From assembly GCA_036339375.1 (NCBI GenBank), contig JAYZBC010000025.1, positions 27,271-91,270 on the forward strand: a DNA stretch of 64,000 nt, given 5' to 3'. Below are positions 2,933-57,538 of the stretch, one piece after another (the first letter of the stretch is position 1; each line of letters starts with the position of its first letter). The position numbers were made by a program, and so were the translations under genes. The notes below the pieces were generated by a model that was not told the origin of the DNA, searched no databases, and saw only the letters and a list, made by a program, of their open reading frames with translations. This stretch comes from Pseudomonadota bacterium (GTDB lineage Bacteria; Pseudomonadota; Alphaproteobacteria; MPNO01; UBA2964).

Positions 2933-2935
2933 CCC

Positions 2936-3961: not shown

Positions 3962-4063
3962 AAAGGAATATTTAAAATACAACACTCTAAAAAATTTATA
4001 TTAGTGGGATGGTTCCTCTCATTGAATTTTAGACCACTATTTTAGGTGAAAATTTTTTAACGC

Positions 4064-5398: not shown

Positions 5399-5399
5399 T

Positions 5400-5849
5400 T
5401 TAATCTTCCGATGTATCTAATTCTGCAACCTTGGAAAGTAAAAATAAAAAAGTATTTCTTTCTGAAAAACTCAAAGGTGCCAGCGTCTCATTTGTAACGT
5501 TTTTTGCAAACTCTACTAATTTTGAAATTGTTTTTTTGCCCTCATTACTCAAACTGATTATGAGGCGCCGACCATCTTTTGGATCTGGACGACGAACGAT
5601 CAAACCTCGTAGTCCTAACCTCTTAATAACCCCTTGCATTGTGGCAGCATCCATCGCCGTTAACCTTCCAAGATGGTTTTGGGAAACCTCGTCCAGGTCA
5701 CGAAGCTTTACCAAAGCGGCAAACTGGAGTGGTGTTAGTTGAGGGTCTCCAATGTTTTCTTGAAAAATTGTTGAATGACGTTGCCGGGCACGACGCAGTA
5801 AATGCCCCGCCTGTCTCTCCAGAATATATTGTTGCTTAAAATTCTTCAA
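5400..5849 (-). CDS. MarR-family transcriptional regulator
   Basis: 149 aa with the winged-helix MarR pattern (...LTPLQFAALVKLRDLDEVSQNHLGRLTAMDAATMQGVIKRLGLRGLI...). Confidence 0.8.
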   Translation of the reverse strand: MKNFKQQYILERQAGHLLRRARQRHSTIFQENIGDPQLTPLQFAALVKLRDLDEVSQNHLGRLTAMDAATMQGVIKRLGLRGLIVRRPDPKDGRRLIISLSNEGKKTISKLVEFAKNVTNETLAPLSFSERNTFLFLLSKVAELDTSED

Positions 5850-6034
5850 AGTCTTGTACCTACATCAGTCCATTATTTTTAGTTAGTATACAAATTTTTC
5901 CCAGAAAAACTAAGACTATCAAGAATTTGTGGGCCTAATACATTGTTAAAATGACATTTCCCGTTTAGCCATTATTAAATTCATTTTTTTACAGGTTGGT
6001 ACAGGTTGTTTAAAGATAAATACAGTAATACTGA

Positions 6035-7267: not shown

Positions 7268-7298
7268 TTTTTTACGGAATTTTGCACTTGGAAAAGGA

Positions 7299-8522
7299 TC
7301 ATACGAAAGCTTGTATTCCCGTTTGTGCACGCCCTAGAATTAAGGCATGGATATCATGCGTACCCTCGTAAGTGATCACTGTTTCCAAATTCATAACATG
7401 ACGAATTACATGATATTCATCAATAATACCATTTGCTCCATGCATATCTCGAGAGGTTCTAGCAATATCGAGTGCTTTTCCAGTGCAATGACGTTTCATT
7501 AAAGAAATCGCTTCTGGAGCGCACTTTCCTTCGTCCATCAACCGACCCAACCGTATGCAAGACCCCAAGCCAACTGTAATCTCTGTCTGCATATCAGCTA
7601 GTTTTTTCTGAATGAGTTGATTAGATGCTAAAGGTTTGCCAAATTGAGTGCGTTCCATCACATAATTACGGGCCGCGTGCCAGCAAAATTCTGCAGCGCC
7701 TAACACACCCCAAGCTATTCCATACCGGGCATTATTAAGACAACCAAAGGGACCACCCAGCCCTTTAGCCCCCTCCAACTTATTTTCTTTCGGTACAAAG
7801 ACATTATCCATAACGACTTCGCCTGTTAATGAAGCTCGTAAAGAGAATTTACCTTCCATTTTTGGCGCGCTGAGCCCTTTCATTCCTTTTTCAAGAATAA
7901 ATCCTCGGATTATGCCTTCATCATCCTTAGCCCAAATCACAAATATATCAGCAATAGGGGCATTTGATATCCACATTTTTGTGCCAGAAATTTGGTACCC
8001 CCCATCAACGTTTTTAGCTCTGGTTTTCAAACCTCCAGCGTCTGAACCGTGATCGGGTTCAGTTAAACCAAAACATCCAATAAACTCACCCTTAGCCAGC
8101 TTCGGCAAATATTTTTGACGTTGATCTTCATTCCCGTAAGCATAAATTGGCCACATTACGAGACTAGATTGTACAGATAAAACTGAGCGATAACTGGAAT
8201 CTACGCGCTCTATTTCTCGGGCAATAAGGCCATAGCTTACATAATTTACACCGGCACAACCGTATCGATTTTCAAGAGTTGATCCTAGAAGGCCGAGTTC
8301 ACCCATTTCATACATAATCTCTCTGTGGAATTTTTCCTTCCTGTTGGCTTCCAGAATACGTGTCATTAATTTTTCCTGGGCATATTGCCGGGTCGTTTCT
8401 CTAATTAATTTTTCATCTTCAGTCAGTTGCTCTTCGAAAAGCAAAGGGTCTTGCCAATCGAATTTTGCCCATTTTTTTATCCGGGCAATGTCGTCGACTG
8501 TTTTAACGGGTTCACTGGTCAT
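7299..8522 (-). CDS. gcdH: Acyl-CoA dehydrogenase, glutaryl-CoA dehydrogenase-like
   Basis: ACAD fold with strong resemblance to GCDH over the N-terminal half (...[42 protein letters not shown]...). Start placed at ATG 8522 with an AAGGAT SD 6 nt upstream. Confidence 0.7.
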
Positions 8523-8599
8523 GACAAAATCCTTAATGGGCCAAGAGCAACACTGGTCCACACGTTTTCAACGAAAACCAAACGCATTGGTTTTCAAAT

Positions 8600-8899
8600 C
8601 TATTCAGAATGCGGACGGGACATCCACATAGCTAGATCAAATGTGTTTAGATCTGCCGCACGCATCATTTCAGCAATTGCAACTACGGCTTCTGTCGCGG
8701 TAACTACATCTTTTTCTCGAAAAGGAGGAAAATAGGTGTCTTCATCTGTCAACTTCTTACAATAAAGTTTTGCTCCAGCGGCTAATAACATCTGGACGGT
8801 TTCCGGTGAAACAGATTCGGTACCGCCATCGTTCAGCACCTCTAGGGCACTCTTAAAAATTTGGCTGACCTCCTTTGCCATCTTATCAGATGATGACAT
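8600..8899 (-). CDS. Hypothetical 99-aa protein; its start overlaps the end of the Rieske gene
   Basis: ATG (MSSSDKMAKEV...) overlaps the last four codons plus stop of the upstream Rieske gene (ATGTCATCATCTGA) in the -1 frame. No recognisable domain. Confidence 0.4.
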   Translation of the reverse strand: MSSSDKMAKEVSQIFKSALEVLNDGGTESVSPETVQMLLAAGAKLYCKKLTDEDTYFPPFREKDVVTATEAVVAIAEMMRAADLNTFDLAMWMSRPHSE

Positions 8900-9251
8900 G
8901 GACTTCCCCATCTAAAACTTTAACGTCAAATTTCCGCAACCGAGCATTTTTATACCCCGGATGCACACCTGTTTTGATGTTAAATTCGTAGCCGTGCCAT
9001 GGGCAAACAATATGCACATCCTCGTCTGACCAAGTGAGGCCCTGACTTGTTTTATCTTCACCAAGCAATTCTACAACACGATTAAGAATGCGCCCTTGAC
9101 AAATTGGACCGCCCTGGTGAACACATTTGTTTTCATAAGCAAAAAATTCCCCATCAACAAAAAAGACGCCAATTTCTAAGTCACCCTGCGCAATTACTTT
9201 ACGGCCGCGATCTTCAAACTCCTCCTCGCGACCTACATATACGTCCGCCAT
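8886..9251 (-). CDS. Rieske [2Fe-2S] domain ferredoxin
   Basis: 121 aa with Rieske boxes CVHQGGPIC and CPWHGYEF. No oxygenase alpha subunit is adjacent. Confidence 0.7.
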   Translation of the reverse strand: MADVYVGREEEFEDRGRKVIAQGDLEIGVFFVDGEFFAYENKCVHQGGPICQGRILNRVVELLGEDKTSQGLTWSDEDVHIVCPWHGYEFNIKTGVHPGYKNARLRKFDVKVLDGEVHVII

Positions 9252-9271
9252 GTCTTTTCCCCTATTGTTCT

Positions 9272-10516
9272 TTATTTTTTAATATCTAAATTAAATAACC
9301 TTACGGCATTTTCACCCAAAATATTACGTTTGGCCTGCTCATCCAAAAAGGGTAGATTATAAATTGTACTGGGTGGATTGAAGTCCCAGTGTGGCCAGTC
9401 AGATGCGTAAAGTAGCTGCGTTTCGGCCTTTACAGCCTTAAAGGTCTCTTCTGTTAAACCCATATTTGCCGTCTCAATGGGCTGGCAGGTGTAATACATA
9501 TCCGCCATATACTCACTAGGTAGTTTTTTCAACAATGGTGCCTCCGAAGGACGCATCATATATTCAGAATCAAGACGTTGCATTAGAAAAGCCAACCATG
9601 CTAGGCCTGATTCAATCCAAATAACAGGTAATTTAGGAAAACGTTCCTGCATACCGTGTACAATCCAATTAGTCATATGCACGATATTGCACAAGACAAA
9701 AGACACAGAATGCATAGAGATGAACAAGTCTAACTGCTTCATCCAATCGTCACCCCAAGTAAGGCCGGCATGAAACGCAAGGGGCAAACCACGTTCTTCT
9801 AATTCTTTATAAATGGGAATATATTGATTATGATGCACCGGCTTGTAACGGATCGCCGTAATCATAAACCCCATAACGTTTGGGTTTTCTCCAAATTCTT
9901 TAATTATTTTTAAACAAGTGTCCGGTTCTGAAATCGGTAAATATAATAATGTTTTTACCCGGTCATCAGCCGGCAAAATTCGTTCACATACCCAACGATT
10001 GTAAGCAAGAGCCAACTGTGCTTCCACACGTGGCTGCGGATGCGTCCCCAGCTGTAACAGGTTTCCGGGGAATAACACTTGAAAATCCAAACCCATGGCA
10101 TCTAAAGACCGGCGCATAAGGGTAACATCACGATGAACGCTCTTATCGTCTACATCTTCTGCTAATTTTTGTTGATGTGGTATCCGCCCACCCGCATCCT
10201 GATAACGTAATCCCGGTGTCGCATTTGAAAGCCCGGGTGCTCCTCCTGTCCGCGATTGAAATTCTTGTGCATAGTGTTTAAGTATTGGATCATCTAAATA
10301 TTCTACGACCTCACGCCAAGAACTCATTTCTGAGTGGTGAGCATCAACATCAACTATGGTCCAATCATCAAAACCATTTTCTATACGAAACTTTGTTTCA
10401 TGCGCCAAAATATCACGAGTATCTGTGTTTATCGTAATTTGGTTAAGGAGTTCTCTTGTTTGTTCTACCCCACTATCCATAACGGTAACCTCCACGTTAA
10501 ATTCCGTCGTTAACAA
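9272..10516 (-). CDS. Amidohydrolase-2 (PF04909-type) metal-dependent hydrolase/decarboxylase family protein
   Basis: 414 aa with VDVDAHH metal-binding start and further His/Asp positions typical of the ACMSD/LigW/IDCase family. About 45-aa N-terminal extension. Confidence 0.65.
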   Translation of the reverse strand: MLTTEFNVEVTVMDSGVEQTRELLNQITINTDTRDILAHETKFRIENGFDDWTIVDVDAHHSEMSSWREVVEYLDDPILKHYAQEFQSRTGGAPGLSNATPGLRYQDAGGRIPHQQKLAEDVDDKSVHRDVTLMRRSLDAMGLDFQVLFPGNLLQLGTHPQPRVEAQLALAYNRWVCERILPADDRVKTLLYLPISEPDTCLKIIKEFGENPNVMGFMITAIRYKPVHHNQYIPIYKELEERGLPLAFHAGLTWGDDWMKQLDLFISMHSVSFVLCNIVHMTNWIVHGMQERFPKLPVIWIESGLAWLAFLMQRLDSEYMMRPSEAPLLKKLPSEYMADMYYTCQPIETANMGLTEETFKAVKAETQLLYASDWPHWDFNPPSTIYNLPFLDEQAKRNILGENAVRLFNLDIKK

Positions 10517-10576
10517 CTTTCATGATAAACTAAAGTAGATAATAGAAAAACTGTTTAAAGGCAATGAGTGGAAAGA

Positions 10577-11011
10577 ATGTCAGAACAGCAAATTGAGACT
10601 AACCGGCTTTTAGTTTATCGATTTTACCATGAACTTTGGAATAATTGGCAATTTGATATTATAAGTGATTTACTGAGCCCGGACTTGGTTTTTCATGGTT
10701 CTTTGGGAACCCAAAAAACTGGTCATGAGGGTTTTATAGAGTATGCCAATCAGGTGCGTAGTGCCTTTCCTGACTTTAAAAATTCTGTCGAAGATATAAT
10801 TGCCGAAGAACAAAAGGTTGCAGCTTGCTTAACATTTCAGGGAACCCACGAAGGGAAAATTTTTGGTATTGAACCTACCGGAAGAACCATTCAGTTTGTG
10901 GGAATAGGTGTTTTTGTTTTTAGAGCAGACTTGATTAGCCATATTTGGGTTCTGGGTGACAGACTATCCCTCTTACAACAACTGAGTGATAGAGATCCCA
11001 TTTCGGAATAA
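10577..11011 (+). CDS. SnoaL-like / NTF2-like ester-cyclase family protein
   Basis: About 145 aa matching the predicted ester cyclase family (...YRFYHELWNNWQFDI...GHEGFIEYANQVRSAFPDF...). Start placed at ATG MSEQQ rather than the upstream GTG. Confidence 0.6.
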   Translation: MSEQQIETNRLLVYRFYHELWNNWQFDIISDLLSPDLVFHGSLGTQKTGHEGFIEYANQVRSAFPDFKNSVEDIIAEEQKVAACLTFQGTHEGKIFGIEPTGRTIQFVGIGVFVFRADLISHIWVLGDRLSLLQQLSDRDPISE

Positions 11012-11033
11012 ATATCAATATTTAGAAAAGGAT

Positions 11034-11064
11034 TAAGAAGACCCAAGCGATCTCTGGGCCTTCT
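11034..11064. terminator. Possible bidirectional hairpin terminator between the convergent SnoaL-like and UbiD-1 genes
   Basis: GAAGACCCA / TGGGCCTTC stem with one mismatch and a 9-nt loop, flanked by A/T runs on both sides. Confidence 0.3.
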
Positions 11065-11079
11065 AAAAATCTTTAAATA

Positions 11080-12537
11080 TTAATATTTAAATACGTTCGG
11101 GAACTTACTTCTCACTTCAGAAGCTAGTTCCGGAGATGTTTGTGCCACTGCCGGAAACGTGTCTATTCTCTCGTAAGGACGACAGGCATTAATGATCACA
11201 CGATTATTGAACAGAGTTTCTTCTTCATGCATTGGATCGAGACGGGAGGATTGGCATTGCGACAAATGCGTAATGTCCCGAGCAGGATCAGACCTTGTAC
11301 CCATTGCCCAAACAACATCATGTAAATTGGCTGCATCTATATCTTCATCCACTACAACAGTATAGCGCCCACAATAAGTTGCTGGGTTAAGTTGCGACGC
11401 CATTAGTCCAGCCTGAGTGGCATGCCCATAAAATCTTTGTTTTATTGAAACGACAACAAAGGTTCGACCGGAACCTGCTTCATGATGCCATACCCCGCGA
11501 ACATCTTGGACACCTGCTTTTTGCAATCCTTCAAGCAAGGTGACGGAGCGTGTAAAACACCGCTCAAACAAATGCGAATGCGGCGGTTTTTGACTTGCTG
11601 CACACGTCAAAATTGGGTTGCTCCGGTAATATACTTTTTTGATTTTAAAAATTGGATCCATTTCAGCGTCACCAGCATAATACCCGGTCCATTCCCCAAA
11701 GGGACCTTCCATACGTTCTTCATCCGGAACTTGTTCACCTTCAATAACAATTTCAGAATGTGCAGGAAAAGGTAAACCATTATCGCCAACAATTAAGTCA
11801 ATTGGCTTACCAGCAAGGCCTCCTTGAAAAGCAAATTCATCAACGTCGTCGGGAATTGTCATGCGCGCTGCAAGAAAATGTGTCGGATCAACGCCCACGA
11901 CAATTGTAGCAGGACAGGGTTCACCCTTTGCAAAATACTTTGCGCGCTGAATATTTCCTTGTTTCCCATTGGAAATCATTACGCCTAGAGTTTGGCCGTC
12001 ATGTACCATACACCGATAAGTTCCGGAATTAACGCGTCCGTTATCAGGGTCTCTTGTGACAACACCACACGCTGTCCCTATATAACGTCCTCCATCTAAT
12101 TCATGATGTACAGGTACAGGTAATAATTTTGTTATATCTATTTCATCTCCCTCCAAAATGTTTTCAAGGATAGGTCCATTTTCTACTATCCTTGGTGGAA
12201 TAGGTTCATGATTAAACATTTTTTCTCGGTAGGCGTTTAATAGAGCAAATCGATCAGTCGACAATTCTGTATCCATTCCTACTGCCAGTGCTAAACGAAA
12301 AGGAGACGCCAGCATCCCATACAAGCAACGGAATCCTTCTGGATAGCCGGGAACTTTATCAAACAAAACCGCTTTCGCTTTTTCGACACGCTCTCGATAC
12401 AAAACTTCAACAACCGCGCCCATTTCTTTATCCCAATGCGCACCATTTACCTTTTCAAGCTGACCGGCTTCTTCTGCAGCCGCTAAAAAATCTCGTAAAT
12501 CTGTTTGCGGGCTGAAGTTCTCCCTACCACCATCCAT
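11080..12537 (-). CDS. UbiD-family (prFMN-dependent) aromatic acid decarboxylase paralog 1
   Basis: About 485 aa with the UbiD hallmark DGGRYIGT, ...SEIVIEG... acidic motif and C-terminal oligomerisation region. Start placed at ATG (MDGGREN...) 8 nt after an AGGAGAG SD. Confidence 0.8.
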   Translation of the reverse strand: MDGGRENFSPQTDLRDFLAAAEEAGQLEKVNGAHWDKEMGAVVEVLYRERVEKAKAVLFDKVPGYPEGFRCLYGMLASPFRLALAVGMDTELSTDRFALLNAYREKMFNHEPIPPRIVENGPILENILEGDEIDITKLLPVPVHHELDGGRYIGTACGVVTRDPDNGRVNSGTYRCMVHDGQTLGVMISNGKQGNIQRAKYFAKGEPCPATIVVGVDPTHFLAARMTIPDDVDEFAFQGGLAGKPIDLIVGDNGLPFPAHSEIVIEGEQVPDEERMEGPFGEWTGYYAGDAEMDPIFKIKKVYYRSNPILTCAASQKPPHSHLFERCFTRSVTLLEGLQKAGVQDVRGVWHHEAGSGRTFVVVSIKQRFYGHATQAGLMASQLNPATYCGRYTVVVDEDIDAANLHDVVWAMGTRSDPARDITHLSQCQSSRLDPMHEEETLFNNRVIINACRPYERIDTFPAVAQTSPELASEVRSKFPNVFKY

Positions 12538-12597
12538 TTTCATCTCTCCTCTCATTTTTAAATCTTCTACCAACAAATATTGTTGTTATCGACATGT

Positions 12598-14094
12598 TTA
12601 ATCCCTTAGGTAGCCCCATCTTTCCCAAGCCTTTCGTCGGGCTTCTGGGGTAGGTGCGTTCACTTTTTGGAACTTATCTTTCCAATGAAATGGACGACAA
12701 GCATTAATGATAGCTCTACTGTTATAGAGCTTACCTTGTTCACGGTCATCAGGCGAAATAACTGGATCCAACGCGGAACTCCACATATTGTGAATTATAT
12801 CTATGCCACTTGCTGGATCACAGCGCGTACAAACTGCCCAAATAACTTCTTCTAAATTAGAAACATCAACATCTTCGTCAACTACCACAACAATCCGGCC
12901 CAAATAAGCACCAGCATGGCAGGTGGCTGTAATTTGGCCAGCCTGGGTCGCATGACCCGGATACCGTTGCTTGATAGACACTGCCAAAAATAAACGCGAA
13001 CCCCCAACCTCATGGGCCCAAACCTCCACAACATCAGGAACACCTGCTCGGTTAATATTTTCCTTCAATACAGCCGAACGGCTGATCGCCCGATAACGAG
13101 CATATTCATAGGGCATCCGAATATGAGCGGCACCTAAAATAATGGGATTGTTGCGATGATAAATTGCCGCAATATCTATCCAAGGCTCAGCCGCCATTAC
13201 TCCACCTTGATAGCCAAGCCATTCCCCAAAAGGGCCCTCACGACTTGTATTGCCCGGATTTATAAATCCCTCAATAACAATTTCAGAATTAGCTGGAAAA
13301 GGCAGTCCGGTATGTTTACCTTCAACACACTCTATGGCTTTTCCACGATAGGCACCCATCATATCAAGCTCACACATACCTTCGGGTGCTTCCGTCGAAG
13401 ATGTCAAAAATGATAATGGATCGCTGCCAACAACAACACATACTGGCATGGGTTTGTTATTTGCCAGGTACTTGTCTCTGTGGATCCTCCCATGTTTTCC
13501 AGGGGAAATATAAAGTCCCACTCTTTTTGCATCATGTACCATCACCCGATAGGTACCACAATTTATCCAACCGCTATCTGGATCACGTGTGATATTGAAA
13601 CAGCCTGTTCCAATATACCTACCCCCATCTTCTGGATTCCAAAGGGGTGATGGAAATTTCGTAATATCAACATCTACACCTTCGGTGATGTTTTCAAAAA
13701 TCGGGCCATCCCTAACAATAGCATGAGGTATAGGTGTGAGATTCCGGGTATGGCGATGATATGCCTGACTTAGTTCAAGTTTATTCAGTTGAGAGGGAAA
13801 TCCAAGTGTGAGGTTCTTTCGTGTACCCGTAAACCAGTTGATTAATAAACGAAACCCCTTCGGACTGCCCTTCACCTCATCAAACAGAATTGTGGGAGTA
13901 TTTTCGTCGTGACAGACGACTTCAACTACTTGACCAATATCGCTCTCCCAATCCGCTCCTTTCACAATTTTTAGGTCACCACGTTTTTTTACTTCCTCCA
14001 ACCAATCACGTAGATCAACATATTCAAGTGCGCAGCCTGCATTCGGGCCAACACCCTGTATAGTCTCGGGTTCAATTGCATTCCCCATTCCCAC
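12598..14094 (-). CDS. UbiD-family decarboxylase paralog 2
   Basis: 498 aa with DGGRYIGTG and NSEIVIEG motifs. By-eye identity is about 50% to paralog 1 and about 70% to paralog 3. GTG/ATG start is ambiguous. Confidence 0.8.
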   Translation of the reverse strand: MGMGNAIEPETIQGVGPNAGCALEYVDLRDWLEEVKKRGDLKIVKGADWESDIGQVVEVVCHDENTPTILFDEVKGSPKGFRLLINWFTGTRKNLTLGFPSQLNKLELSQAYHRHTRNLTPIPHAIVRDGPIFENITEGVDVDITKFPSPLWNPEDGGRYIGTGCFNITRDPDSGWINCGTYRVMVHDAKRVGLYISPGKHGRIHRDKYLANNKPMPVCVVVGSDPLSFLTSSTEAPEGMCELDMMGAYRGKAIECVEGKHTGLPFPANSEIVIEGFINPGNTSREGPFGEWLGYQGGVMAAEPWIDIAAIYHRNNPIILGAAHIRMPYEYARYRAISRSAVLKENINRAGVPDVVEVWAHEVGGSRLFLAVSIKQRYPGHATQAGQITATCHAGAYLGRIVVVVDEDVDVSNLEEVIWAVCTRCDPASGIDIIHNMWSSALDPVISPDDREQGKLYNSRAIINACRPFHWKDKFQKVNAPTPEARRKAWERWGYLRD

Positions 14095-14127
14095 ACTCGT
14101 TTAACGTAAGTTTTCCGTCAAAAGAAA

Positions 14128-14162
14128 TCCGGCCGCCGCACTAATGTTTGGTACGGCAGCCG
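14128..14162 (-). terminator. GC-rich imperfect hairpin between UbiD-3 and UbiD-2 (possible intercistronic attenuator or processing site)
   Basis: CCGGCCGCCG ... CGGCAGCCG inverted repeat (7/8 bp, about 15-nt loop) in an otherwise AT-rich 91-nt spacer, with a T-rich tract following on the transcribed (minus) strand. Confidence 0.3.
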
Positions 14163-14185
14163 ACCTCTATTTCAGTACACCCATT

Positions 14186-15679
14186 TTAAGAGGGTTTTTC
14201 GCAAAGGTGTCCCCACTTCTCTATAGCCTCTCTCATGACTTCTGGCTCCGGAGAATTTACAGGGGGAAATTCATCTTTCCAATGAAATGGGCGACAAGCA
14301 TCAATAATCGCCCGGCTATTAGTCAAATTGCCTTTGGCTTTTTCTTCCGGTGGAATTCTTGGATCCAAAGGTGTAGACCAACAATTATGAATGATATCAA
14401 TTGAGGTTGCTGGATCAGAACGTGTGATCATGCCCCAGATTAGCTCTTCCAAGTTAGTCACATCAATATCATCATCTACAACGATTACGTATTTACCTGC
14501 ATATGCCCCGAGATGACACATAGCAGCAACGTGACCCGTTTGCATTGCATGTCCAGGGTAACGTTGCTTTATTGAAATAGCGAGTAACATTCGGGCGGTA
14601 CCAACTTCGTGGGCCCAAACCCCTTGCACATCTGGCACTCCAGCCTTGACAATATTTTCTTTGAGTGCGGCTGAACGTGTAACTGCCCTATAACGTGCCA
14701 ACTCATCTGGTGGGCGCAGAGGTGGACAGCCCAAAATTATTGGATCGTTCCTGTGATAAATAGCCTTAATGTCTAAAACTGGCTCAGCACGCATTTTTGA
14801 ACCATAGTAGCCAGTCCATTCCCCGAATGGTCCCTCTTCAACCCGGTTACCAGGTTCAATAAAACCCTCTAATACAAGTTCCGCATTTGCAGGAAAGGGT
14901 AAACCAGTATGTTTGCCTTTGACGCATTCAATAGCATGCCCCCGATAGCCTCCTAAAATATCATATTCACAGGCACCGGGTGGCATTTCTGTACAACCCA
15001 TTAAGAAGGCCATGGGATCACCACCCAAAACGATACAAGCCGGCATAGGCTCACCATTAGCTTCGTATTTATCACGATGGATTCGACCATGTTTCCCGGG
15101 CGAAATGTAAAATCCGACTTGTTTTTTGTTATGGATCATAACCCGGTAGGTTCCGATATTTATCCAATCACTATCTGGATCACGCGTTACATTGTAGGAA
15201 CCCGTTCCTATATAACGTCCACCATCTTTGTCATGCCACATCGGCGTCGGAAATTTCTCGACGTCTATGTCATCGCCTTCCATAATATTTTCGAATACCG
15301 GCCCGTTATCAACAATTGCATGTGGAATTGGCTCTATAGAAGATAGATGTTTATGGACCCCGTCGGTTAGCTCAAGTTTGGTAAAGTCAGGGGAAAAACC
15401 CATTGTCATGCATTTTCGTTTACCGGCAAAGAAATTGATCATCATTCTAAAACCAGGAGGACAACCCGGCACTTCATCAAAAATGATGCAGGGCGCGTTT
15501 TCATCATGCTGGACAACTTCAGAAGCCAACCCGATGTCCTTTTCCCAACTCGCTCCCTTAACGACTCTAACTTCGCCAAGTTTCTCGGCTTCCACGATCC
15601 ATTCTCTCATATCTTCGTAAGTCATACGGGCACCAACATTCGAACCACTGTCAACGGCCGTAGCTTTTACATCTGCCAT
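14186..15679 (-). CDS. UbiD-family decarboxylase paralog 3
   Basis: About 497 aa with DGGRYIGTG and NAELVLEG motifs. Start placed at ATG 15679 (MADVKATAV...) with a GGGAGAG SD upstream. The ORF-track start 15754 is an upstream in-frame extension. Confidence 0.8.
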   Translation of the reverse strand: MADVKATAVDSGSNVGARMTYEDMREWIVEAEKLGEVRVVKGASWEKDIGLASEVVQHDENAPCIIFDEVPGCPPGFRMMINFFAGKRKCMTMGFSPDFTKLELTDGVHKHLSSIEPIPHAIVDNGPVFENIMEGDDIDVEKFPTPMWHDKDGGRYIGTGSYNVTRDPDSDWINIGTYRVMIHNKKQVGFYISPGKHGRIHRDKYEANGEPMPACIVLGGDPMAFLMGCTEMPPGACEYDILGGYRGHAIECVKGKHTGLPFPANAELVLEGFIEPGNRVEEGPFGEWTGYYGSKMRAEPVLDIKAIYHRNDPIILGCPPLRPPDELARYRAVTRSAALKENIVKAGVPDVQGVWAHEVGTARMLLAISIKQRYPGHAMQTGHVAAMCHLGAYAGKYVIVVDDDIDVTNLEELIWGMITRSDPATSIDIIHNCWSTPLDPRIPPEEKAKGNLTNSRAIIDACRPFHWKDEFPPVNSPEPEVMREAIEKWGHLCEKPS

Positions 15680-15732
15680 AAAATTTCTCTCCCTAAGTAA
15701 ATACGTCCCATTTCCAATTATTCTCGAAAATA

Positions 15733-15823
15733 GGCAATACACAATTTGCCACAAATTTTAAAAAAGGTAAAAGTTTTCGAATGGCAATACAAAAACTTTT
15801 GAAAGACTAGAATTATGCCATTC
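15733..15823. promoter_or_regulatory. Cluster of inverted and direct repeats upstream of UbiD-3 (candidate operator plus promoter)
   Basis: GGCAA-N8-TTGCC inverted repeat at about 15733-15750. (A/T)GGCAATACA repeated directly at about 15732 and 15781. GAATGGCA...TGCCATTC inverted repeat at about 15779-15823. All lie in the 190-nt gap between the 2OG oxygenase stop and the UbiD-3 start. Confidence 0.3.
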
Positions 15824-15946
15824 TAATACAGAAGTCACGTAAAGCTTTAAAAATTTTAACTTATTTTTGGATATTATTTAGATACTGGGAAATGAGGTAT
15901 TAGCAAAATAAGCGTGGAAAACAATATTATAATGGCTAAACGAATT

Positions 15947-16864
15947 TTATCCGGAAATTTCATTACTCTCCGCAATCCGTTGAGCAACATAGGCACCAGC
16001 CGTTGTGGCTGGATATTTGGCTGGTTGACCCACGCTGACACAACTGTCGAAAGCACTCACTGGTACATCTGTATCAGGATCAACAAAAAATGCTATTGAA
16101 TAACGTTCACGATCCCCAGTAATAGCTCTTACCCTGTGAGGGCTTGAACAATAGCGATCATTTGTCCAAGTTGCGATCAAATCAGCTGTATTTACAATTA
16201 CCGTCCCTGGAATGTGCACTGCATCGAGCCATTGACCAGAACGATTTTGGATTTGTAGACCTCCTACATCATCCTGAAATAATAAAGTTATTGTACCAAA
16301 ATCTGTGTGTGCTCCAGCCCCTAATTGATTTGCAGATAAATTTTTACCCGAAATAGGGTAATGTAAATAACGTAAAGCCACATTTTCTCCCTTATGACGT
16401 TCGCGAAAATATTTAATTGGAAGGTCAAGTGCTATGGCAAAGGCTTCCATAACAATATTTGACCCTCGTAAACATTCTCCGAAAGCACGGACAGCAATTC
16501 TACGAAATTCGTTGGAAGGCCATAAATTCAAAAATTTCTCACGCAACGGTACATCGCGCATGGTAAAGGCTTCTTTCAAATCAGGGGCAAATTGGGAATC
16601 AAGTCGTTGTTCTCCAACACCTTGGTATCCATGGTTCATGTCTTGAACGTAAGATAATTTTGATTTTTCGGACAGCGGTTGTTTGAAAAATTTTACACTA
16701 GAATTAAATGCATCTTGGAGAATATTTTGGTCAATACCTAAATTTTTTGCATACATAAAACCTACTTCAGACGCGGCCTTATTTACCTCTTCTGAAATTC
16801 TCCGTCGTTCGTTTTCGTCACCACTGTCAAATCTTTTAAAATCGATTAGAGGTATATTTGTCAC
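15947..16864 (-). CDS. 2OG-Fe(II) oxygenase, isopenicillin-N-synthase-like (COG3491-type)
   Basis: 305 aa. N-terminal (...IPLIDFKRF...) plus HxD...H facial triad region (GAHTDFGTITLLFQDD...SSPHRV). Confidence 0.7.
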   Translation of the reverse strand: MTNIPLIDFKRFDSGDENERRRISEEVNKAASEVGFMYAKNLGIDQNILQDAFNSSVKFFKQPLSEKSKLSYVQDMNHGYQGVGEQRLDSQFAPDLKEAFTMRDVPLREKFLNLWPSNEFRRIAVRAFGECLRGSNIVMEAFAIALDLPIKYFRERHKGENVALRYLHYPISGKNLSANQLGAGAHTDFGTITLLFQDDVGGLQIQNRSGQWLDAVHIPGTVIVNTADLIATWTNDRYCSSPHRVRAITGDRERYSIAFFVDPDTDVPVSAFDSCVSVGQPAKYPATTAGAYVAQRIAESNEISG

Positions 16865-16895
16865 AATATTTATTCTCCCAAAACATCAGGTTATT

Positions 16896-18440
16896 CTATA
16901 AAGAAAATTTATCCTTAATCCAAAATTCTGCCAGTGCATTTCGATCAAGCTTTCCCCGAGAATTTTTTGGCAGTTCATTTAAAAATATAATTTTTTTAGG
17001 GCATTTAGCTGCAGGCAATGTTTTCGAACAATGTTCCATTAAATCTTTAGGGTTCACTTTACTGCCTTTTTTACAAGAAACGTACGCAATTATTTCCTCT
17101 CCATAAATTTTATCAGGTATTCCTAATGTTCCTGCTTCAGATACTGCTTGATGCAAAACCAATACAGCATCAATTTCGAGTGGGGCAATATTTATTCCCC
17201 CCCGAATAATTAATTCCTTTGCCCTTCCCACAATATGGAGATGGCCCTCACTATCAACATAACCCAGATCACCAGTTTTGTGACCTCCCTCTGGCAAGAG
17301 TTCAATTTTACCGTTTGGTAATAAATAACCAAATGCCTGCTGCTTACCCCCTCCTACAATGATTTCTCCGGTTTTACTTTCTTTAAGTAAATTACCATCG
17401 CCATCAACAATACGAACATCTTGATATTTTAACTGTGGGCCAATCGACCCAATTTTTCTATCAGCTCCTCGGTGGGCTGCTGTGTTTCCTCCTTCACTTG
17501 AACCACAGCTTTGAGCAAGTGTAATACCAAAAATTTTTTCAAATTCACGCCATTGTTCTTCATGAAGTGGGGCAGAACTTGAGGTTAAAAATCGGAGCTC
17601 TGGTAATTTACCAATATTTGTATTTTGAGTTCGATTTAACAACATGTTAACCATTGTTGGGACTACAAAACCAATATTGATTTTAAATTTCTTCAACCAA
17701 TAAAAATAACGGCTCTGAGAAAACCGTTTGGCCATAAACGTAGTCCCGCCTGCGATGAGCGGAGCTCCAAGACTCATATGTTGAGCCGATAGCCAACTAT
17801 AAGATCGACAATCTAAAACCCGGTCTCCAGGGGATAGTTGGAGATAGTCAGCCGTAGCGTCATAATTGTAAAACGCATTGGCATGGGTTTGGATTACACC
17901 CTTTGGCTTCGCTACTGTGCCTGAAGTGTAAAAAATAACGCCATGATCATCCGGCTCTGCACAACTGGATAAATCATCCTTGTCAGTAAAATTATAAACT
18001 TCCGAAAAAAAGCCCGTCGAATTTTTCTCTCCTTTAAATTCTCCCAAAAGAAGCCATATCCCAGGGGCCTTTTGTTTTAATTCCTCCAGTCCCAAACCGC
18101 TTTGATACAAAATTATTTTTGGATCAATAGCCTTTATGATTTCAATCAAGCTACCTTGATTCATCTCAACATGGACTGTCGCTATACTCGCGCCATAACG
18201 CAGAACGCTTACGAATACTGCTAAATTTTCTACTGAGTTTTCAGCCAGTAACAATATACGGTCGTTGGCTTTTATTTTGTGTGTTTTTAAAAAGTGAGAT
18301 ATCCGATTAGACAACCCATAAAGGGTTCCGTAGGTAAGGGATTTGTTTTGATCAATACAATGGACGTAAATCCGATCCGGAAACTGGGCTGCGTTTTTGG
18401 CTAAAATTTGATGAAAATTTGTATAGCAGTTTAAAGCCAC
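16896..18440 (-). CDS. AMP-dependent synthetase/ligase (acyl-/aryl-CoA ligase)
   Basis: 514 aa with the adenylate-forming enzyme motif YTSGTVAKPKGV and a C-terminal ligase domain. Confidence 0.8.
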   Translation of the reverse strand: MALNCYTNFHQILAKNAAQFPDRIYVHCIDQNKSLTYGTLYGLSNRISHFLKTHKIKANDRILLLAENSVENLAVFVSVLRYGASIATVHVEMNQGSLIEIIKAIDPKIILYQSGLGLEELKQKAPGIWLLLGEFKGEKNSTGFFSEVYNFTDKDDLSSCAEPDDHGVIFYTSGTVAKPKGVIQTHANAFYNYDATADYLQLSPGDRVLDCRSYSWLSAQHMSLGAPLIAGGTTFMAKRFSQSRYFYWLKKFKINIGFVVPTMVNMLLNRTQNTNIGKLPELRFLTSSSAPLHEEQWREFEKIFGITLAQSCGSSEGGNTAAHRGADRKIGSIGPQLKYQDVRIVDGDGNLLKESKTGEIIVGGGKQQAFGYLLPNGKIELLPEGGHKTGDLGYVDSEGHLHIVGRAKELIIRGGINIAPLEIDAVLVLHQAVSEAGTLGIPDKIYGEEIIAYVSCKKGSKVNPKDLMEHCSKTLPAAKCPKKIIFLNELPKNSRGKLDRNALAEFWIKDKFSL

Positions 18441-18526
18441 GCTATCATTATCCTGCCTGTCAATTTTTTCTGTCGATAAAAGGTTCTCTTAAATCTGAGT
18501 TTAACATGACAGCGATTTTTGAAAAA

Positions 18527-20092
18527 TTAGCCGTTACCTGTCTCACCCAACCAACGAAAGTAGGGATCTTGCATTGCCCGAAGTTCAGAGAGTTCATCAT
18601 CAGAAAACCATTTAGAAAAATCCATTTCCTCGACTGGATAATGGGCTCGTTCATAAACCTGTACACCGAGGGGTGCTGTAGCATCAATTCCCATACCTCC
18701 ATCAGATACGGAGATATTGCCAATCTTGTGTTCAGAAGGCTGAAAAGCCTGACCTCGTCCGTATTCGTTATAAACGATGTAATCTTTAGTAGCAGAAGCA
18801 CGCGATTGAATGGCCCACATCACGTCTTCCGGTTGCCAGGGGTCAATATCATCATCCACAACAACGACGAGTCGCATGCCTCGGTAAAGTCCCATTATGG
18901 CGGTGAGTAAATTGCGCTGCATACCTTCATCGGAGCGCCGACGTTTTTTTACCTGGATAACCAATCCACCCCAAAGTGTTAGACCTAGCCAGCTCGCAAC
19001 ATCTTTTACAAAGCCAGGGGCCATCCTTTCACAAAGCTCAAAAACGCTGGCACACATAAAAGGGGCCTCATACCAAAAAGCACCAAAATGTGGGGTGTAC
19101 ACAATTGGATTATTTTTACGCCGAGTTACTGCGGTGAGTTCAAAAGCCCGGGGCGTCCGATATGCATGGCCCATAGTACGCGCCCACTCGGGATGCAATA
19201 AAGCCACCCCTTGTTTACCCATTTCTTCTGCTTCAGCAGTTTCCCAAACACGTTCTCCTTCTACAACATACCCCTCAAGTGACCACTCAGCATTGGCAAT
19301 TGTATATGCATCTACCGTTTTGGCCTTCACTACATCCACTGGGTAACCCTGAATGGCACCAGCAAAACCCAGCTTATCTGTCTGCCCGGGGAAAATGACA
19401 GGGTTCATAGTAGAGACTGAAACTAGTTCAGGACCGACAGGTGGGCAAATATTTACCGTGCATGGTACTTTCTCCCCTTGGTGACGCGAGCAAATTACGT
19501 CACCAGCGCCCCCTGGCACCATGTTTATAGAAGCAAGTTTGTGTCCTTCTCTAAACGACATTCGATACATAGAAATTTGACTACCACCCCCAGGTACCCA
19601 GGGTTCACCCATAAAAAGATGTGATCCCGCACCGAAAATTCTTCCGCCATCTTGGAAGGTGTGTTGTGCAACGGGTATAATTTCTTCAATATGATTAAAA
19701 TCTTTCCCCGGGATAAGTGTTTCCTCATGGACCGGACCGTCGTCTACCACGCGTGGGGCAATTGGATTTTCAACCTGCTTTAATAGCTGATTTTTGATGT
19801 TTCGGAAGTCATCACACCCGTGAAATAAACACACACGCTCTTTTCTAGAGTATAGATTAGATATCATCCTAACATTTGGATAACCTTTGATTTTGTTAGC
19901 AACAATTACTTTAGAGTTATCAAAGGCTTTGGTTATAGTACACATCTCAACGTGGGGATCGACCTCGGCGTCAATATAGTGAACATCGTCGCCAAGCCAT
20001 TCAAGTGTAGACCGTAAGTCAACAAGCCCTTCACCACGCGTCAGGCTGCTAAACCTTTGATCGTCTAGCTTAACTGTCATTCGGTCTGACAT
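18527..20092 (-). CDS. UbiD-family decarboxylase paralog 4 (divergent)
   Basis: 521 aa. UbiD-like throughout (QDGGRIFGAG..., NAEWSLEG) but much more divergent than paralogs 1-3. Confidence 0.7.
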   Translation of the reverse strand: MSDRMTVKLDDQRFSSLTRGEGLVDLRSTLEWLGDDVHYIDAEVDPHVEMCTITKAFDNSKVIVANKIKGYPNVRMISNLYSRKERVCLFHGCDDFRNIKNQLLKQVENPIAPRVVDDGPVHEETLIPGKDFNHIEEIIPVAQHTFQDGGRIFGAGSHLFMGEPWVPGGGSQISMYRMSFREGHKLASINMVPGGAGDVICSRHQGEKVPCTVNICPPVGPELVSVSTMNPVIFPGQTDKLGFAGAIQGYPVDVVKAKTVDAYTIANAEWSLEGYVVEGERVWETAEAEEMGKQGVALLHPEWARTMGHAYRTPRAFELTAVTRRKNNPIVYTPHFGAFWYEAPFMCASVFELCERMAPGFVKDVASWLGLTLWGGLVIQVKKRRRSDEGMQRNLLTAIMGLYRGMRLVVVVDDDIDPWQPEDVMWAIQSRASATKDYIVYNEYGRGQAFQPSEHKIGNISVSDGGMGIDATAPLGVQVYERAHYPVEEMDFSKWFSDDELSELRAMQDPYFRWLGETGNG

Positions 20093-20248: not shown

Positions 20249-20764
20249 ATGTTAGATTCACCGGAATTTGCAAAGCCTGCCAAAACCAACAAACAAATGA
20301 AAGAACAAGAAGTTTCGTTTGCCGAAATTCAAACTCCTTATTGTTTTTCACTGAAAGGCCAATTGCTTGACCAAGGCCGAACAGACACCGTATTAGCTGC
20401 AACTGATGATTTGACTATCCGGCTCAAAATTTACGCATCTGGCGGGGAAAATGAACTCCATGCTCACCCCCACGAGGATCACAGTTTTATGATTCTACAA
20501 GGTTCCGCCAAATTTTTTGGTCCGAATGAAGAAGAAATTGATTTAAAACAATGGGAAGGAATCATGTTGCCGCGCGGCAATTTATATAAATTTTATGCTA
20601 CCAGCAAAGAACCTCTTGTCATGATACGAGTTGGAAACCCTAACTATAAAAAACAAACGGCACCCTACCGTGTCAACAAAAAGGGTGTGGAAATGAGAGG
20701 TGATTCTGAAGAGAACAAAACCGTTCCCGTCATTTTCAAAGAAGATACCTTTTTCGGTAGTTAA
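20249..20764 (+). CDS. Cupin-domain protein
   Basis: 171 aa with cupin motifs (GGENELHAHPHEDHSFMILQGSAKF...). Divergently transcribed from UbiD-4. Confidence 0.55.
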   Translation: MLDSPEFAKPAKTNKQMKEQEVSFAEIQTPYCFSLKGQLLDQGRTDTVLAATDDLTIRLKIYASGGENELHAHPHEDHSFMILQGSAKFFGPNEEEIDLKQWEGIMLPRGNLYKFYATSKEPLVMIRVGNPNYKKQTAPYRVNKKGVEMRGDSEENKTVPVIFKEDTFFGS

Positions 20765-20888: not shown

Positions 20889-21986
20889 CTAATCTCTGAT
20901 ATCCTGGAGAAACCATTCGGTTGGAAATTGCCTCCCTACTTTCGCCTTCAACGCTTTTTCGTAAACTAGTCCACCAACAGACGAAAATTGCAAACCCTGG
21001 TTGCCTATATTGTGATAGAAAGTAATCTGTTCATCGTCTGTTCGTCCAAGAGAAGGATCTTTTACTAATTCGCCAAAATCTGGGTAATCGGCCACAAAAT
21101 TGAAATTTTCCTGTTTAGGGGGCAGACGCGTGCGTTCTTCTTCAGAACCTGCAACCCAAGCCATTGGACTATGCCCTACCCCTTTTAAAATATCATCCCC
21201 ATCGATCTTTAAACCGGATTTTCCCTGGGAAATTTTTACATCACAACTTTCTATTACCTCATTTGAAATTTCTAGTGGGCCGAGCATCGTAACGTGTTGG
21301 CCAGGAGACAACCATTCTGCATCAAATGTAGGTTCCATTGAATCAGTACAAGAGGAAACAATATCTGCACCGCGAACAGCCTCTTCGGGGGAACTAACAG
21401 GTACCACTTCGATATTTAACCGCCGGCTCATTTCAGAGGCATAAGCATTTCGATTTGCCTCCGTCGGGCTATAAACTTTAACAGAGCGGATTCCCCGAAC
21501 GGCGCAATAGGCTTGGAGATAGGTGCGGGCCATACCCCCCGATCCAAGCATGCCAACTGAAGTGGAGTTTTTGCGAGCGAGATATTTTGCTCCAATTCCA
21601 CCGCCACCTCCTACTCGCATGTGTTGTAAAACTCCATCATTTATAAAGGCAAGAGGCTCACCATTCTTTGTAGAAAAAAGCATAATCAAACCACAATATG
21701 TCCCAGGTTCAATACAAAATTTATCTTCTCTCCAGTTACCTTTTTCATTGACCGGCCATGTCATAATGTCAGATTTCATTCGAATGGCTAAGTATCCACC
21801 GGAACAACCCTCCATTGTTCCCCACCGATAATATCCATCCTCAAGATCACAAGGTGCATAAATATCTGAACGTGGCCGATGTGTTGCACGGCCTTCTGCC
21901 AAGTCTGAAAATGCTTTTTCTTGAGCAGCAATACAGTCTTCCATAGTCAAAATTTCTTGTACAACATCATTATGGATAAACAACAT
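20889..21986 (-). CDS. Ornithine cyclodeaminase / mu-crystallin family NAD(P)-dependent enzyme
   Basis: 365 aa with the OCD/mu-crystallin pattern, including a Rossmann motif (MLGSGGMARTYLQA). Confidence 0.7.
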   Translation of the reverse strand: MLFIHNDVVQEILTMEDCIAAQEKAFSDLAEGRATHRPRSDIYAPCDLEDGYYRWGTMEGCSGGYLAIRMKSDIMTWPVNEKGNWREDKFCIEPGTYCGLIMLFSTKNGEPLAFINDGVLQHMRVGGGGGIGAKYLARKNSTSVGMLGSGGMARTYLQAYCAVRGIRSVKVYSPTEANRNAYASEMSRRLNIEVVPVSSPEEAVRGADIVSSCTDSMEPTFDAEWLSPGQHVTMLGPLEISNEVIESCDVKISQGKSGLKIDGDDILKGVGHSPMAWVAGSEEERTRLPPKQENFNFVADYPDFGELVKDPSLGRTDDEQITFYHNIGNQGLQFSSVGGLVYEKALKAKVGRQFPTEWFLQDIRD

Positions 21987-22273: not shown

Positions 22274-23269
22274 CTAAACCTTAAATTCGCTTTGAACCTC
22301 TTTAGGAAACATTTCTTCAGGCGTTAAGTGCCGGTGAAACAACCCCTGTTCGTAACCATAGAGCAGAAATGCCTCCAACGTTTTTCGGTTTGGCTCAATA
22401 CCATAAGGATAGAAATCATTTCCAAATAAATCACGTGCTTCCGATGCTGCATTATAAACCCACGCGATTGGAGCCCTACATGCTGTTATATCGAGCATTC
22501 TCTCGAGTGATCGATTTTTTGCCTCGGTAAGGGCCTTGACCATATTCTGAGCCACCCAGGGGTCTGCTTCAAAAACTTCTCTCCGAATTGCGTAGAGGTG
22601 CATGATGGGCCAAATACCCGTCTTTTCATAATACTCCTTTTCTACCCGCTGGTAATCTTTATAAAGACGTACAATTCGGGGATCACCCTGTTCAACCAGG
22701 TCTGGAGGATGTGCCGTTAAAATTGCATCAATGTCACCCGCCAGTAAAAGTTCAGTCAAAGATTTGTCTGGACACGGAATTAACTTAACTCCATCAGGAA
22801 GCTTAAGAGCGACCTTTTCTTTTCGGCCGGCTTGATTGACACCAGCTTGGTGCCATTCGATTTCGTTTAATGGAATTCCTATGTCATGCTGAAGCCAGCC
22901 ACGTGAATACACCGAAGCGGATTGACCCCATTCTGGTATTCCAATTCTTTTACCAGCCAGATCTTCAGCCTTTTTCACAACGCTATCAGCAGAAATGTAG
23001 AGTGAAGACTGACGATGAACGCGGGAAGGAAATATCGGCAATCCCACAAACCGATCATCGCCTTGACTTATCATTGAGGTGTATTTTCCAGAAGAAATTT
23101 CTGAAATATCGTATTCTTCAAAATTGATAAAGCGATGAAACATTTCTTCAATTTGAACTGTCATCGCTATTAAATCTATTCCCTCTGGTTCAACAGGGCC
23201 TAGGGTTAGGTCTCTTACATGGTCATAATCGCTTGTAGCGAACGTAAGTTTTAACCGTTTCTTCGGCAT
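22274..23269 (-). CDS. Cytoplasmic NMT1/THI5-like (SsuA-fold) protein resembling 4,5-dihydroxyphthalate decarboxylase (Pht5/PhtD-like)
   Basis: 331 aa with no signal peptide (MPKKRLKLTFATSDYDHVRDLTLGPVEPEGIDL...), a periplasmic-binding-protein-like fold outside any transporter operon. The Pht5 similarity is recalled from memory, not searched. Confidence 0.45.
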   Translation of the reverse strand: MPKKRLKLTFATSDYDHVRDLTLGPVEPEGIDLIAMTVQIEEMFHRFINFEEYDISEISSGKYTSMISQGDDRFVGLPIFPSRVHRQSSLYISADSVVKKAEDLAGKRIGIPEWGQSASVYSRGWLQHDIGIPLNEIEWHQAGVNQAGRKEKVALKLPDGVKLIPCPDKSLTELLLAGDIDAILTAHPPDLVEQGDPRIVRLYKDYQRVEKEYYEKTGIWPIMHLYAIRREVFEADPWVAQNMVKALTEAKNRSLERMLDITACRAPIAWVYNAASEARDLFGNDFYPYGIEPNRKTLEAFLLYGYEQGLFHRHLTPEEMFPKEVQSEFKV

Positions 23270-56935: not shown

Positions 56936-56944
56936 AAAATTATT

Positions 56945-57382: not shown

Positions 57383-57431
57383 CCAACTTTAGATGAGCAA
57401 TATTCAAAATAGGACAAAAACTTTTAAATCA

Positions 57432-57506
57432 GCGGGTGTAGCTCAGTGGTAGAGCACGAGCTTCCCAAGCTCGGTGTCGAGGGTTCAATTCCCTTCACCC
57501 GCTCCA
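57432..57506 (+). tRNA. tRNA-Gly (anticodon CCC)
   Basis: Cloverleaf folds by hand: 7-bp acceptor stem GCGGGTG/CACCCGC, D-arm GCTC...GAGC, anticodon stem CGAGC/GCTCG with loop TTCCCAA, T-arm GAGGG-TTCAATT-CCCTT, and an encoded CCA. Confidence 0.85.
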
Positions 57507-57538
57507 GTTTCGAAGTGCTGTGATAATTGTATCATAAA

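Follow-up and report, generated by a model that had tools for sequence, protein, structure and literature searches.

Enzymes of the UbiD family, which depend on prenylated flavin mononucleotide (prFMN), attract interest as catalysts of reversible (de)carboxylation, and substrates are known for few of their clades. Among the described members, PhdA, the phenazine-1-carboxylate decarboxylase of Mycolicibacterium fortuitum, works on its own as a homohexamer and takes a free heteroaromatic acid as its substrate, with E269 and R159 as catalytic residues (PMC10850782), and XCDC, the xanthine-8-carboxylate decarboxylase of Cupriavidus sp. LA-1, is a hexameric, UbiX-dependent UbiD of an orphan clade, which acts on a free N-heteroaromatic acid and belongs to a catabolic cluster (PMC12391406). 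In the phthalate system of a sulfate-reducer and in the isophthalate system of Syntrophorhabdus, a CoA-activating enzyme adjoins the decarboxylase (PMC13040137, PMC9516798). The stretch of DNA analysed here (64 kb of contig JAYZBC010000025.1 from a Pseudomonadota bacterium, in the following the window) carries four UbiD-family genes, labelled U1 to U4, which fall into three subfamilies: A-type (U2 and U3), B-type (U1) and a type related to phthaloyl-CoA decarboxylase (PCD; U4). That they encode four separately functional prFMN-type decarboxylases in an aerobic catabolic island for substituted (hetero)aromatic carboxylic acids is the explanation favoured here, with a probability of about one half.

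The four genes had been recognized at the same positions of the minus strand in a reading of the letters alone (the sequence-only reading), and the listing of open reading frames (ORFs), Pfam and NCBIfam bear this out. U1 (11080-12576), U2 (12598-14094) and U3 (14186-15679) follow one another directly, and between U3 and U4 (18527-20092) lie a 2-oxoglutarate/Fe(II) oxygenase and an AMP-forming CoA ligase, all of them on the minus strand. The profile search that had been proposed as a check finds the UbiD core domain in every one of the four proteins, with E-values between 1e-22 and 2e-64 (1e-62, 6e-61, 2e-64 and 1e-22 for U1, U2, U3 and U4, respectively); the core and C-terminal (UbiD_C) domains pass the Pfam cut-offs in all four, and the N-terminal one (UbiD_N) does so in U1, U2 and U4, while it is below threshold in U3. 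The gaps of 21 and 91 nt first noticed between the tandem genes are correct and become ranges with alternative starts, namely 91-97 nt from U3 to U2, and 21-60 nt from U2 to U1, since the gene call in a 99%-identical genome places the likely true start of U1 at 12537, to give a protein of 485 aa. The gene call in the 99%-identical genome also makes U2 a protein of 496 aa, and U3 starts at 15679 with an ATG that follows GGGAGAG.

A terminator-like hairpin on the minus strand directly 3′ of U1 (11036-11064), with an 11-pair stem and then a T-rich tail, is the top match of a terminator scan and is followed by a plus-strand SnoaL gene, so that the U1-side transcription unit ends there. At the opposite end, the 267-nt AT-rich intergenic region 5′ of U3 (15680-15946, minus strand) contains the inverted repeat TTGCCA...TGGCAA and, as far as its letters can tell, is the probable promoter or operator of a U3-U2-U1 unit; a sigma-70 scan found this region not enriched. 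On the strength of the hairpin and of the AT-rich gap, U3-U2-U1 may form their own transcription unit downstream of U4, the ligase and the oxygenase.

The assignment to three subfamilies emerges from several comparisons. Identity among U1, U2 and U3, which had been put at 50-70% by eye, is lower when measured (43-63%, with 63% for U2-U3, 44.5% for U1-U2 and 43% for U1-U3), and U4 is about 25% identical to the others. PhdA (7PDA) is the best PDB match of U1, U2 and U3 (305, 335 and 377 bits, respectively; 37-38% identity), and the next ones, HudA and VdcC, stand far lower, at approximately 165-175 bits. The best PDB match of U4 is PCD (8PMK/8OZ5; 276 bits, E 4e-81, 34% identity), followed by AroY at 114 bits, and PCD is also the top fold match of its AlphaFold2 model (mean confidence, pLDDT, 86.6; TM score 0.75-0.78). 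The cut-off of TIGR00148 (244.85) is passed by U1-U3 with 261-265 bits (265 for U1), U4 remaining below it with 94 bits. The B-type signature PPHSHLFERCF is found in U1; 53 differences are fixed between A- and B-types and 16 between the U3 type and the clade of U2, and several fixed differences adjoin DGGR, follow the catalytic Glu or fall opposite the Fdc1 pocket region (313-332) in the alignment.

Models of described subgroups are, instead, not reached. The PpcB model (phenyl_P_beta, TIGR02724; cut-off 468.95) is the top NCBIfam match of U2 and U3, with 278-291 bits (250-291 across U1-U3), and on the alpha model (TIGR02723; cut-off 564.6) U1-U3 score 188-199 bits, U4 giving 35-37 bits. However, PhdA, which is no Ppc subunit, scores 287 and 193 bits on the two models, so that a sub-threshold PpcB score is a trait of the whole PhdA-like clade and no evidence for Ppc. 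The claim that tandem genes imply a heteromer of the Ppc/Abc kind is therefore not supported, also in the light of the A- and B-types that occur singly. U1-U3 and U4 score 249-256 and 144 bits, respectively, on the VdcC-type C-subunit model (NF041204; cut-off 650), and 142-155 and 48.5 bits on that of UbiD proper (NF008175; cut-off 788); on the menaquinone-type decarboxylase and BagN models all four are far under the cut-offs (BagN_FevL: 160-191 bits for U1-U3, cut-off 1000).

Residues were compared in an alignment of PhdA, PCD and U1-U4 with the Aspergillus niger Fdc1 sequence, checked against 4ZA4, which provides the numbering. The catalytic network (Fdc1 R173, E277 and E282), within EGPFGE, is kept in U1-U4, E269 and R159 of PhdA align with the catalytic residues of the four proteins, and the equivalents of R173, E277 and E282 do not vary across 100 homologues of the A/B types and 57 of U4 (alignments A1, A2 and A3). 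U4 shares with PCD an insert of approximately 13 residues, which parts the two catalytic Glu (ETAE...HPEW). The sequence-only reading had considered the four proteins as active-type enzymes, and the catalytic Arg and Glu pair kept in all of them agrees with it. The motifs that it had quoted fared unevenly: DGGR and E-x-x-x-E-G are indeed present in all four, but E..LEG is not catalytic, the network being in EGPFGE. All four are, from their sequences, bona fide UbiD-family genes, apparently active.

The metal-ligand positions (Fdc1 N168, H191 and E233) set the subfamilies further apart. U2 and U3 have the fully canonical N/H/E. U1 has N/Q/E, the Gln at H191 being invariant in 52 B-types and found also in solitary ones. 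U4 has Q/A/K in place of the canonical N(H)/H/E, and nothing else in the locus is as unusual as this change of the metal site in the U4 subclade. Of the 57 U4 homologues, those more distant from U4 (about 50% identity) carry His and Glu, and 16 (approximately 63-88% identity) replace the His with Ala, Gln or Gly together with a change of the Glu to Lys. The other cluster representatives of the PCD superclade keep His and Asp-Glu, with the exception of the homologue P0388, an unrelated cluster representative with a similar Lys pattern, in which the alignment suggests that the change may have arisen a second time. As two canonical metal ligands are replaced, cofactor binding in U4 may differ from that in PCD.

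Comparison with orthologues at 85-89% identity gives, for all four genes, a non-synonymous divergence (dN) of 0.08-0.14, synonymous divergence (dS) being saturated; for this reason selection is expressed as dN plus saturation and not as a dN/dS ratio. All four UbiD genes are under purifying selection, and in the same comparison the ligase and oxygenase beside them have diverged further. With such dN values at saturated synonymous sites, the metal-site substitutions are conserved changes and not decay.

The relatives of the host are marine Rhodospirillaceae-like metagenome-assembled genomes (MAGs) with a GC content of about 41%, in accordance with the marine alphaproteobacterial background already perceived in the letters. 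The array is not a one-off: the near-identical genome GCA_964646825.1 (99%) has the same gene order, and the series ligase-oxygenase-U3-U2-U1 is kept in at least 12 marine alphaproteobacterial MAGs, with UbiD genes 83-89% identical. U4 is found upstream of the array in some relatives (L012 and L022; L-numbers denote relatives' loci, P-numbers homologue proteins). A gene for a TRAP DctM-like permease, a type of carboxylate transporter, lies between the oxygenase and U3 in L004, L005, L008 and L022, and U3 is 1.3-7 kb from U2 in some marine relatives (7 kb in L003); from these insertions and displacements, the array is being rearranged around a constant U2-U1 pair.

Outside this group, the A-type is widespread, with homologues of U3 at 55-89% identity (65-89% in the searches and alignment that separate the groups) in Alpha- and Betaproteobacteria, Acidobacteria and other phyla. 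The clade of U2 is a marine-restricted offshoot of it, whose members (72-85% identical to U2) were found only in marine MAGs and metagenomes and are just 57-60% identical to other A-types; the U2 type also stands alone in other marine MAGs (L013-L021, L034, L042 and L061). U1 is 61-66% identical to B-type homologues from Defluviicoccus, Kiloniellales, Gammaproteobacteria and others. A word-indexed search with single-sequence queries returned thousands of matches each for the A- and B-types at E <=1e-30, a number that may include other UbiD clades, and at the same threshold the U4 branch is rare, with 45 clusters (50% identity) among 1.84 billion representatives.

A-type genes also accompany PCD modules. 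In MAGs of Sulfuritalea, Polaromonas and Sterolibacterium (L025-L028 and L166), an A-type gene lies in or beside a genuine phthalate operon, whose PCD is 91-93% identical to the crystallised 8PMK; in the Sulfuritalea locus (L166, 2403-11512) the order is ubiX, pcd, a fused CoA transferase, an NMT1-type binding protein, two ABC transporter genes and the A-type UbiD. The A-type proteins of these operons are 67-70% identical to U3, and the phthalate region of L166 is probably mobile, being flanked by TraG and IS66 genes. PCD-like genes and CoA transferases or ligases occur with A-types also in L023, L031, L081, L113 and L157, and in L029 and L063 the A-type is beside CoA-activating genes, no PCD-like gene being detected there. 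L081, from a soil alphaproteobacterial MAG, contains homologues of U4 (74%), of the ligase (64%) and of U3 (84%). The distant anaerobe of L031 (a Thermodesulfobacteriota MAG, 2616-17124) repeats nearly the whole parts list of the window, with a PCD-like gene, two CoA transferases, ubiX, one A-type, two B-types and an OCD-family gene. Furthermore, ubiX adjoins A-type genes in more than 20 other loci, which speaks for a dependence of this clade on prFMN. No mention of an A-type UbiD as PCD companion was found in the accessible phthalate literature, nor anything relevant in a search for published overviews of arrays of UbiD paralogues or of similarity networks of their sequences, and the companionship of A-types with PCD modules, including genuine pcd operons, is apparently unreported.

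The genes around the array speak for catabolism in the presence of oxygen. The 2-oxoglutarate/Fe(II) oxygenase (15947-16864, minus; Pfam DIOX_N and 2OG-FeII_Oxy) has as best PDB match a fungal thymine-7-hydroxylase (thymine dioxygenase; 5C3P, E 1e-45), and it is kept with the ligase and U3-U2-U1 in the marine relatives; in fungi the hydroxylase converts a ring methyl into a carboxylate, and a decarboxylase takes this group off. The AMP-forming acyl/aryl-CoA ligase (16896-18440, minus; Pfam AMP-binding) follows U4 on its strand after 86 nt and adjoins a U4 homologue also in L012, L022 and L081; its closest solved relatives activate dicarboxylates, being the oxalate-, malonate- and o-succinylbenzoate-CoA ligases. 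Both this pairing and the placement of U4 in the aryl-CoA (phthaloyl-CoA) decarboxylase clade had escaped the sequence-only reading. On the other side of U4, Pfam identifies a small cupin (20249-20764, plus), an enzyme of the OCD/mu-crystallin family (20889-21986, minus) and an NMT1-like putative solute-binding protein (22274-23269, minus), and the same set, with a DHDPS-like gene, stands beside the U4 homologue of L081.

Beyond U1, an 'Amidohydro_2' gene (9272-10516, minus) is closest to the amidohydrolase-related dinuclear oxygenases (ARO; 8SM7 at E 5.5e-38, SfbO 8SM6 and AibH2 6M1W) and is directly followed by a small Rieske ferredoxin (8886-9251, minus), the combination of ARO and Rieske ferredoxin being the published signature of such monooxygenases (Liu et al. 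2024). The product of 9272-10516 is, judging from these matches, probably an enzyme that hydroxylates C-H bonds, as opposed to a hydrolase or decarboxylase; a role as a further decarboxylase, similar to LigW or IDCase (the amidohydrolase-type iso-orotate decarboxylase), was considered and rejected in view of the dinuclear oxygenases that are its nearest solved relatives and of the Rieske ferredoxin partner. Other genes encode a MarR regulator (5400-5849), an acyl-CoA dehydrogenase, a family III CoA transferase, luciferase-like monooxygenases, a flavin reductase, hydrolases, and MFS and TRAP transporters. With the 2-oxoglutarate oxygenase, the ARO-like enzyme with its Rieske ferredoxin and the luciferase-like monooxygenases, O2-dependent enzymes surround the array, and its setting is, therefore, an aerobic catabolic island.

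A few genes of the window stand apart. The genes of a two-subunit 2-oxoacid:ferredoxin oxidoreductase of the POR/PFOR type, beside a pyridine-nucleotide-disulfide oxidoreductase (1067-3961, plus), are unexpected near a cluster rich in O2-dependent enzymes. A bicupin of 373 aa (25637-26758, minus), with no PDB or NCBIfam relative, recurs beside A-type UbiD genes elsewhere (61% identity in L027 and 51% in L002). Finally, an ORF similar to CTP-dependent riboflavin kinases (PF01982; 56945-57382), of a family that is usually archaeal, has a second AMP-forming CoA ligase on one side and a second family III CoA transferase on the other, within a minus-strand stretch at 55415-58765, and a link to flavin cofactor supply is possible.

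Starting from the observed family and subfamily membership, retained catalytic residues, purifying selection, synteny and co-occurrence, the explanation favoured here supposes that the four enzymes work in the direction of decarboxylation. U1-U3, as PhdA-like proteins, would most likely form homo-oligomers, with pockets that differ among the three, and take free (hetero)aryl carboxylates as substrates, and together they could widen the substrate range or strip successive carboxyls from polycarboxylated rings. The ligase would produce a carboxy-aryl-CoA thioester, and the PCD-like U4 would most likely decarboxylate this thioester, following the logic by which phthalate or isophthalate is converted to (iso)phthaloyl-CoA and, then, to benzoyl-CoA. 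The 2-oxoglutarate oxygenase may turn a ring methyl into a carboxyl, to be removed by a decarboxylase. All four decarboxylases probably share a single catabolic purpose, that of freeing substituted or polycarboxylated aromatic rings of their carboxyls. Of the suggestions in the sequence-only reading, that of a substrate-diversified decarboxylase system for aromatic acids is, thus, the one that the evidence favours.

Several points weigh against this explanation. The function of A-, B- and U4-type proteins rests on 34-38% homology and gene neighbourhood, and U4 is without two of the three canonical metal ligands. No ubiX or PF02441 gene was found among the window ORFs scanned (those of at least 80 aa in 5-27 kb and of at least 110 aa elsewhere), nor by tblastn in the window or in the loci of the marine clade. 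The ligase-U4 coupling is not universal, as in several marine relatives (L004-L009) the ligase is not preceded by U4. Lastly, a heteromer explains equally well both the adjacency of U2 and U1, seen in every marine relative examined, and the A-then-B order that recurs in Defluviicoccus, L101 and L031.

Indeed, because of this invariable adjacency and recurrent order, a heteromeric UbiD enzyme formed by A- and B-type subunits (U2 and U1, possibly with U3), as an aerobic counterpart of PpcAB with U4 as a separate enzyme, stays a live alternative, albeit one that we consider unlikely. It would fit the constancy of the U2-U1 pair while U3 drifts, the L167 locus, where a U2-like and U1-like pair occurs with no U3, and the other A-then-B tandem pairs or triples, of which the Defluviicoccus one consists of proteins of 503 and 481 aa encoded with an 85-nt gap; the invariant His to Gln change of the B-types could, in turn, mark a specialised subunit. 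Counts over genes with at least 4 kb of flank cut both ways: 5 of the 8 non-marine B-types have an A-type within 6 kb (those of Defluviicoccus, L101 and L031 included), but 30 of the 32 non-marine A-types have no B-type within that distance, a second A-type being nearby in 7 of the 32. These pairing statistics are small and biased, since only about 15 of the 80 loci of the metagenome B-type scan are true B-types, the generic DGGRYIGT pattern having dominated. Solitary B-types that keep the signature exist in L087, L090, L092 and L093 (in all but L092 the gene has 6 kb of sequence on either side), and with non-marine A-types mostly free of a B-type and with solitary B-types the pairing is recurrent but not obligatory. 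Further points that disfavour the heteromer are the complete catalytic sets of both types, the homohexameric state of the closest solved relative, PhdA, and the spacing of the genes, which are 21-97 nt apart with no overlap; moreover, no HAD-family partner was found among the scanned ORFs, small PpcC/PpcD-like ORFs not having been looked for exhaustively.

Two bolder readings, which do not exclude each other, are together considered unlikely. According to one, the U4 subclade could hold prFMN without the canonical divalent metal, U4 being then a metal-independent, or differently metallated, aryl-CoA decarboxylase in an aerobe. According to the other, the A-then-B pair would be the first heteromeric UbiD decarboxylase of aerobic bacteria, and the heteromer and a PCD-like enzyme would take part in a widespread undescribed pathway that decarboxylates aromatic polycarboxylates, compounds of which the refractory organic matter of seas and soils is believed to contain much.

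Much less probable is the idea that the cluster is biosynthetic, its UbiD proteins being tailoring decarboxylases for a secondary metabolite, as are TtnD, SmdK and BagN/FevL. The MarR regulator does weakly match BagL/FevM (68 bits, cut-off 230), U1-U3 give the BagN_FevL scores quoted above, and a SnoaL-like gene adjoins U1, but each score is far under its cut-off, no polyketide synthase, non-ribosomal peptide synthetase or other scaffold-building genes were found in the window, and the neighbours are those of transport and catabolism (TRAP transporter, solute-binding protein, CoA transferase, acyl-CoA dehydrogenase and hydrolases). More improbable still is a carboxylase of the anaerobic type, like those of phenylphosphate, benzene or naphthalene, which would activate the ring by carboxylation: phenyl_P_beta is the top NCBIfam model of U2 and U3, and multi-UbiD clusters at 27-37% identity are present in Desulfobacterales and Syntrophorhabdus MAGs (L071-L080), but the Ppc scores are far under their cut-offs and equalled by homohexameric PhdA, in the window neither a HAD-type phosphatase gene nor one for a phenylphosphate synthase was found, O2-dependent oxygenases are among the neighbours, and the host lineage is that of a pelagic marine alphaproteobacterium. 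That we are dealing with copies of one enzyme that are redundant or in decay, an outcome contemplated by the sequence-only reading, or with the ordinary UbiD of ubiquinone synthesis, hardly deserves credit, since, although U2 and U3 look like recent paralogues at 63% identity, the selection and motif data refute decay, each paralogue has its own set of orthologues across MAGs at 83-89% identity, and the UbiD-proper model stays far below its cut-off in all four.

The locus defines three uncharacterised UbiD subfamilies. If the substrates of the enzymes prove to be aromatic polycarboxylates, it would bear on the turnover of the carboxyl-rich aromatic dissolved organic matter of the ocean, and also on the degradation of phthalate and of plastic monomers. 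The altered metal site of U4 would be of mechanistic interest with respect to prFMN binding, and proof of a prFMN site that needs no metal, or of a heteromeric UbiD in an aerobe, would add to the interest of the locus.

With regard to known systems, the arrangement of PpcAB and of the putative benzene and naphthalene carboxylases, with several UbiD-like genes side by side, resembles that of the window; however, the context is here aerobic, the A- and B-types occur also singly, and no gene for a gamma or HAD-type delta subunit as in PpcABCD is among the scanned ORFs, very small ones not having been examined exhaustively. No UbiX or VdcD-like gene, as in VdcBCD/BsdBCD, adjoins U1-U4. XCDC finds a parallel in the marine A- and B-type pair of L167, which, like the lumazine cluster, has an amidohydrolase and a molybdenum-hydroxylase gene in its vicinity (the two being compared by description only), whereas beside the array there are no lumazine dehydrogenase or isomerase genes. 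The fungal salvage of thymidine, with thymine-7-hydroxylase and iso-orotate decarboxylase, offers the same sequence of methyl oxidation to a carboxylate and non-oxidative decarboxylation, although the decarboxylases are here of the UbiD type and not of the amidohydrolase type, and it is adjacency that suggests the link.

PCD and isophthaloyl-CoA decarboxylase are counterparts of U4, which has PCD as best sequence and fold match, shares with it the long insert between the catalytic Glu, and adjoins a CoA-activating enzyme too, the ligase. Nonetheless, U4 is 34% identical to PCD, compared with 47-93% for genuine orthologues (91-93% in pcd operons, 47-68% for more distant ones); it has DGGR where PCD has ETEM, and Q/A/K as metal ligands compared with H/H/E; no ubiX is beside it, and its host and neighbouring genes are aerobic. 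By its sequence, U4 belongs to the PCD superclade but on a different branch, and is not a PCD orthologue. PhdA remains the reference for U1-U3, which match it over their full length and have the same catalytic Arg and Glu and the EGPFGEW loop. The differences are the Gln that replaces the metal-binding His in the B-type, the lack of recognizable phenazine genes near U1-U3, and an identity of 37-38%; since the A- and B-types share more with each other (43-44%) than either does with PhdA, the relation is one of sister subfamilies, not of orthology. The genes of the window are, overall, uncharacterised members of a known enzyme family in a cluster of a recognizable kind.

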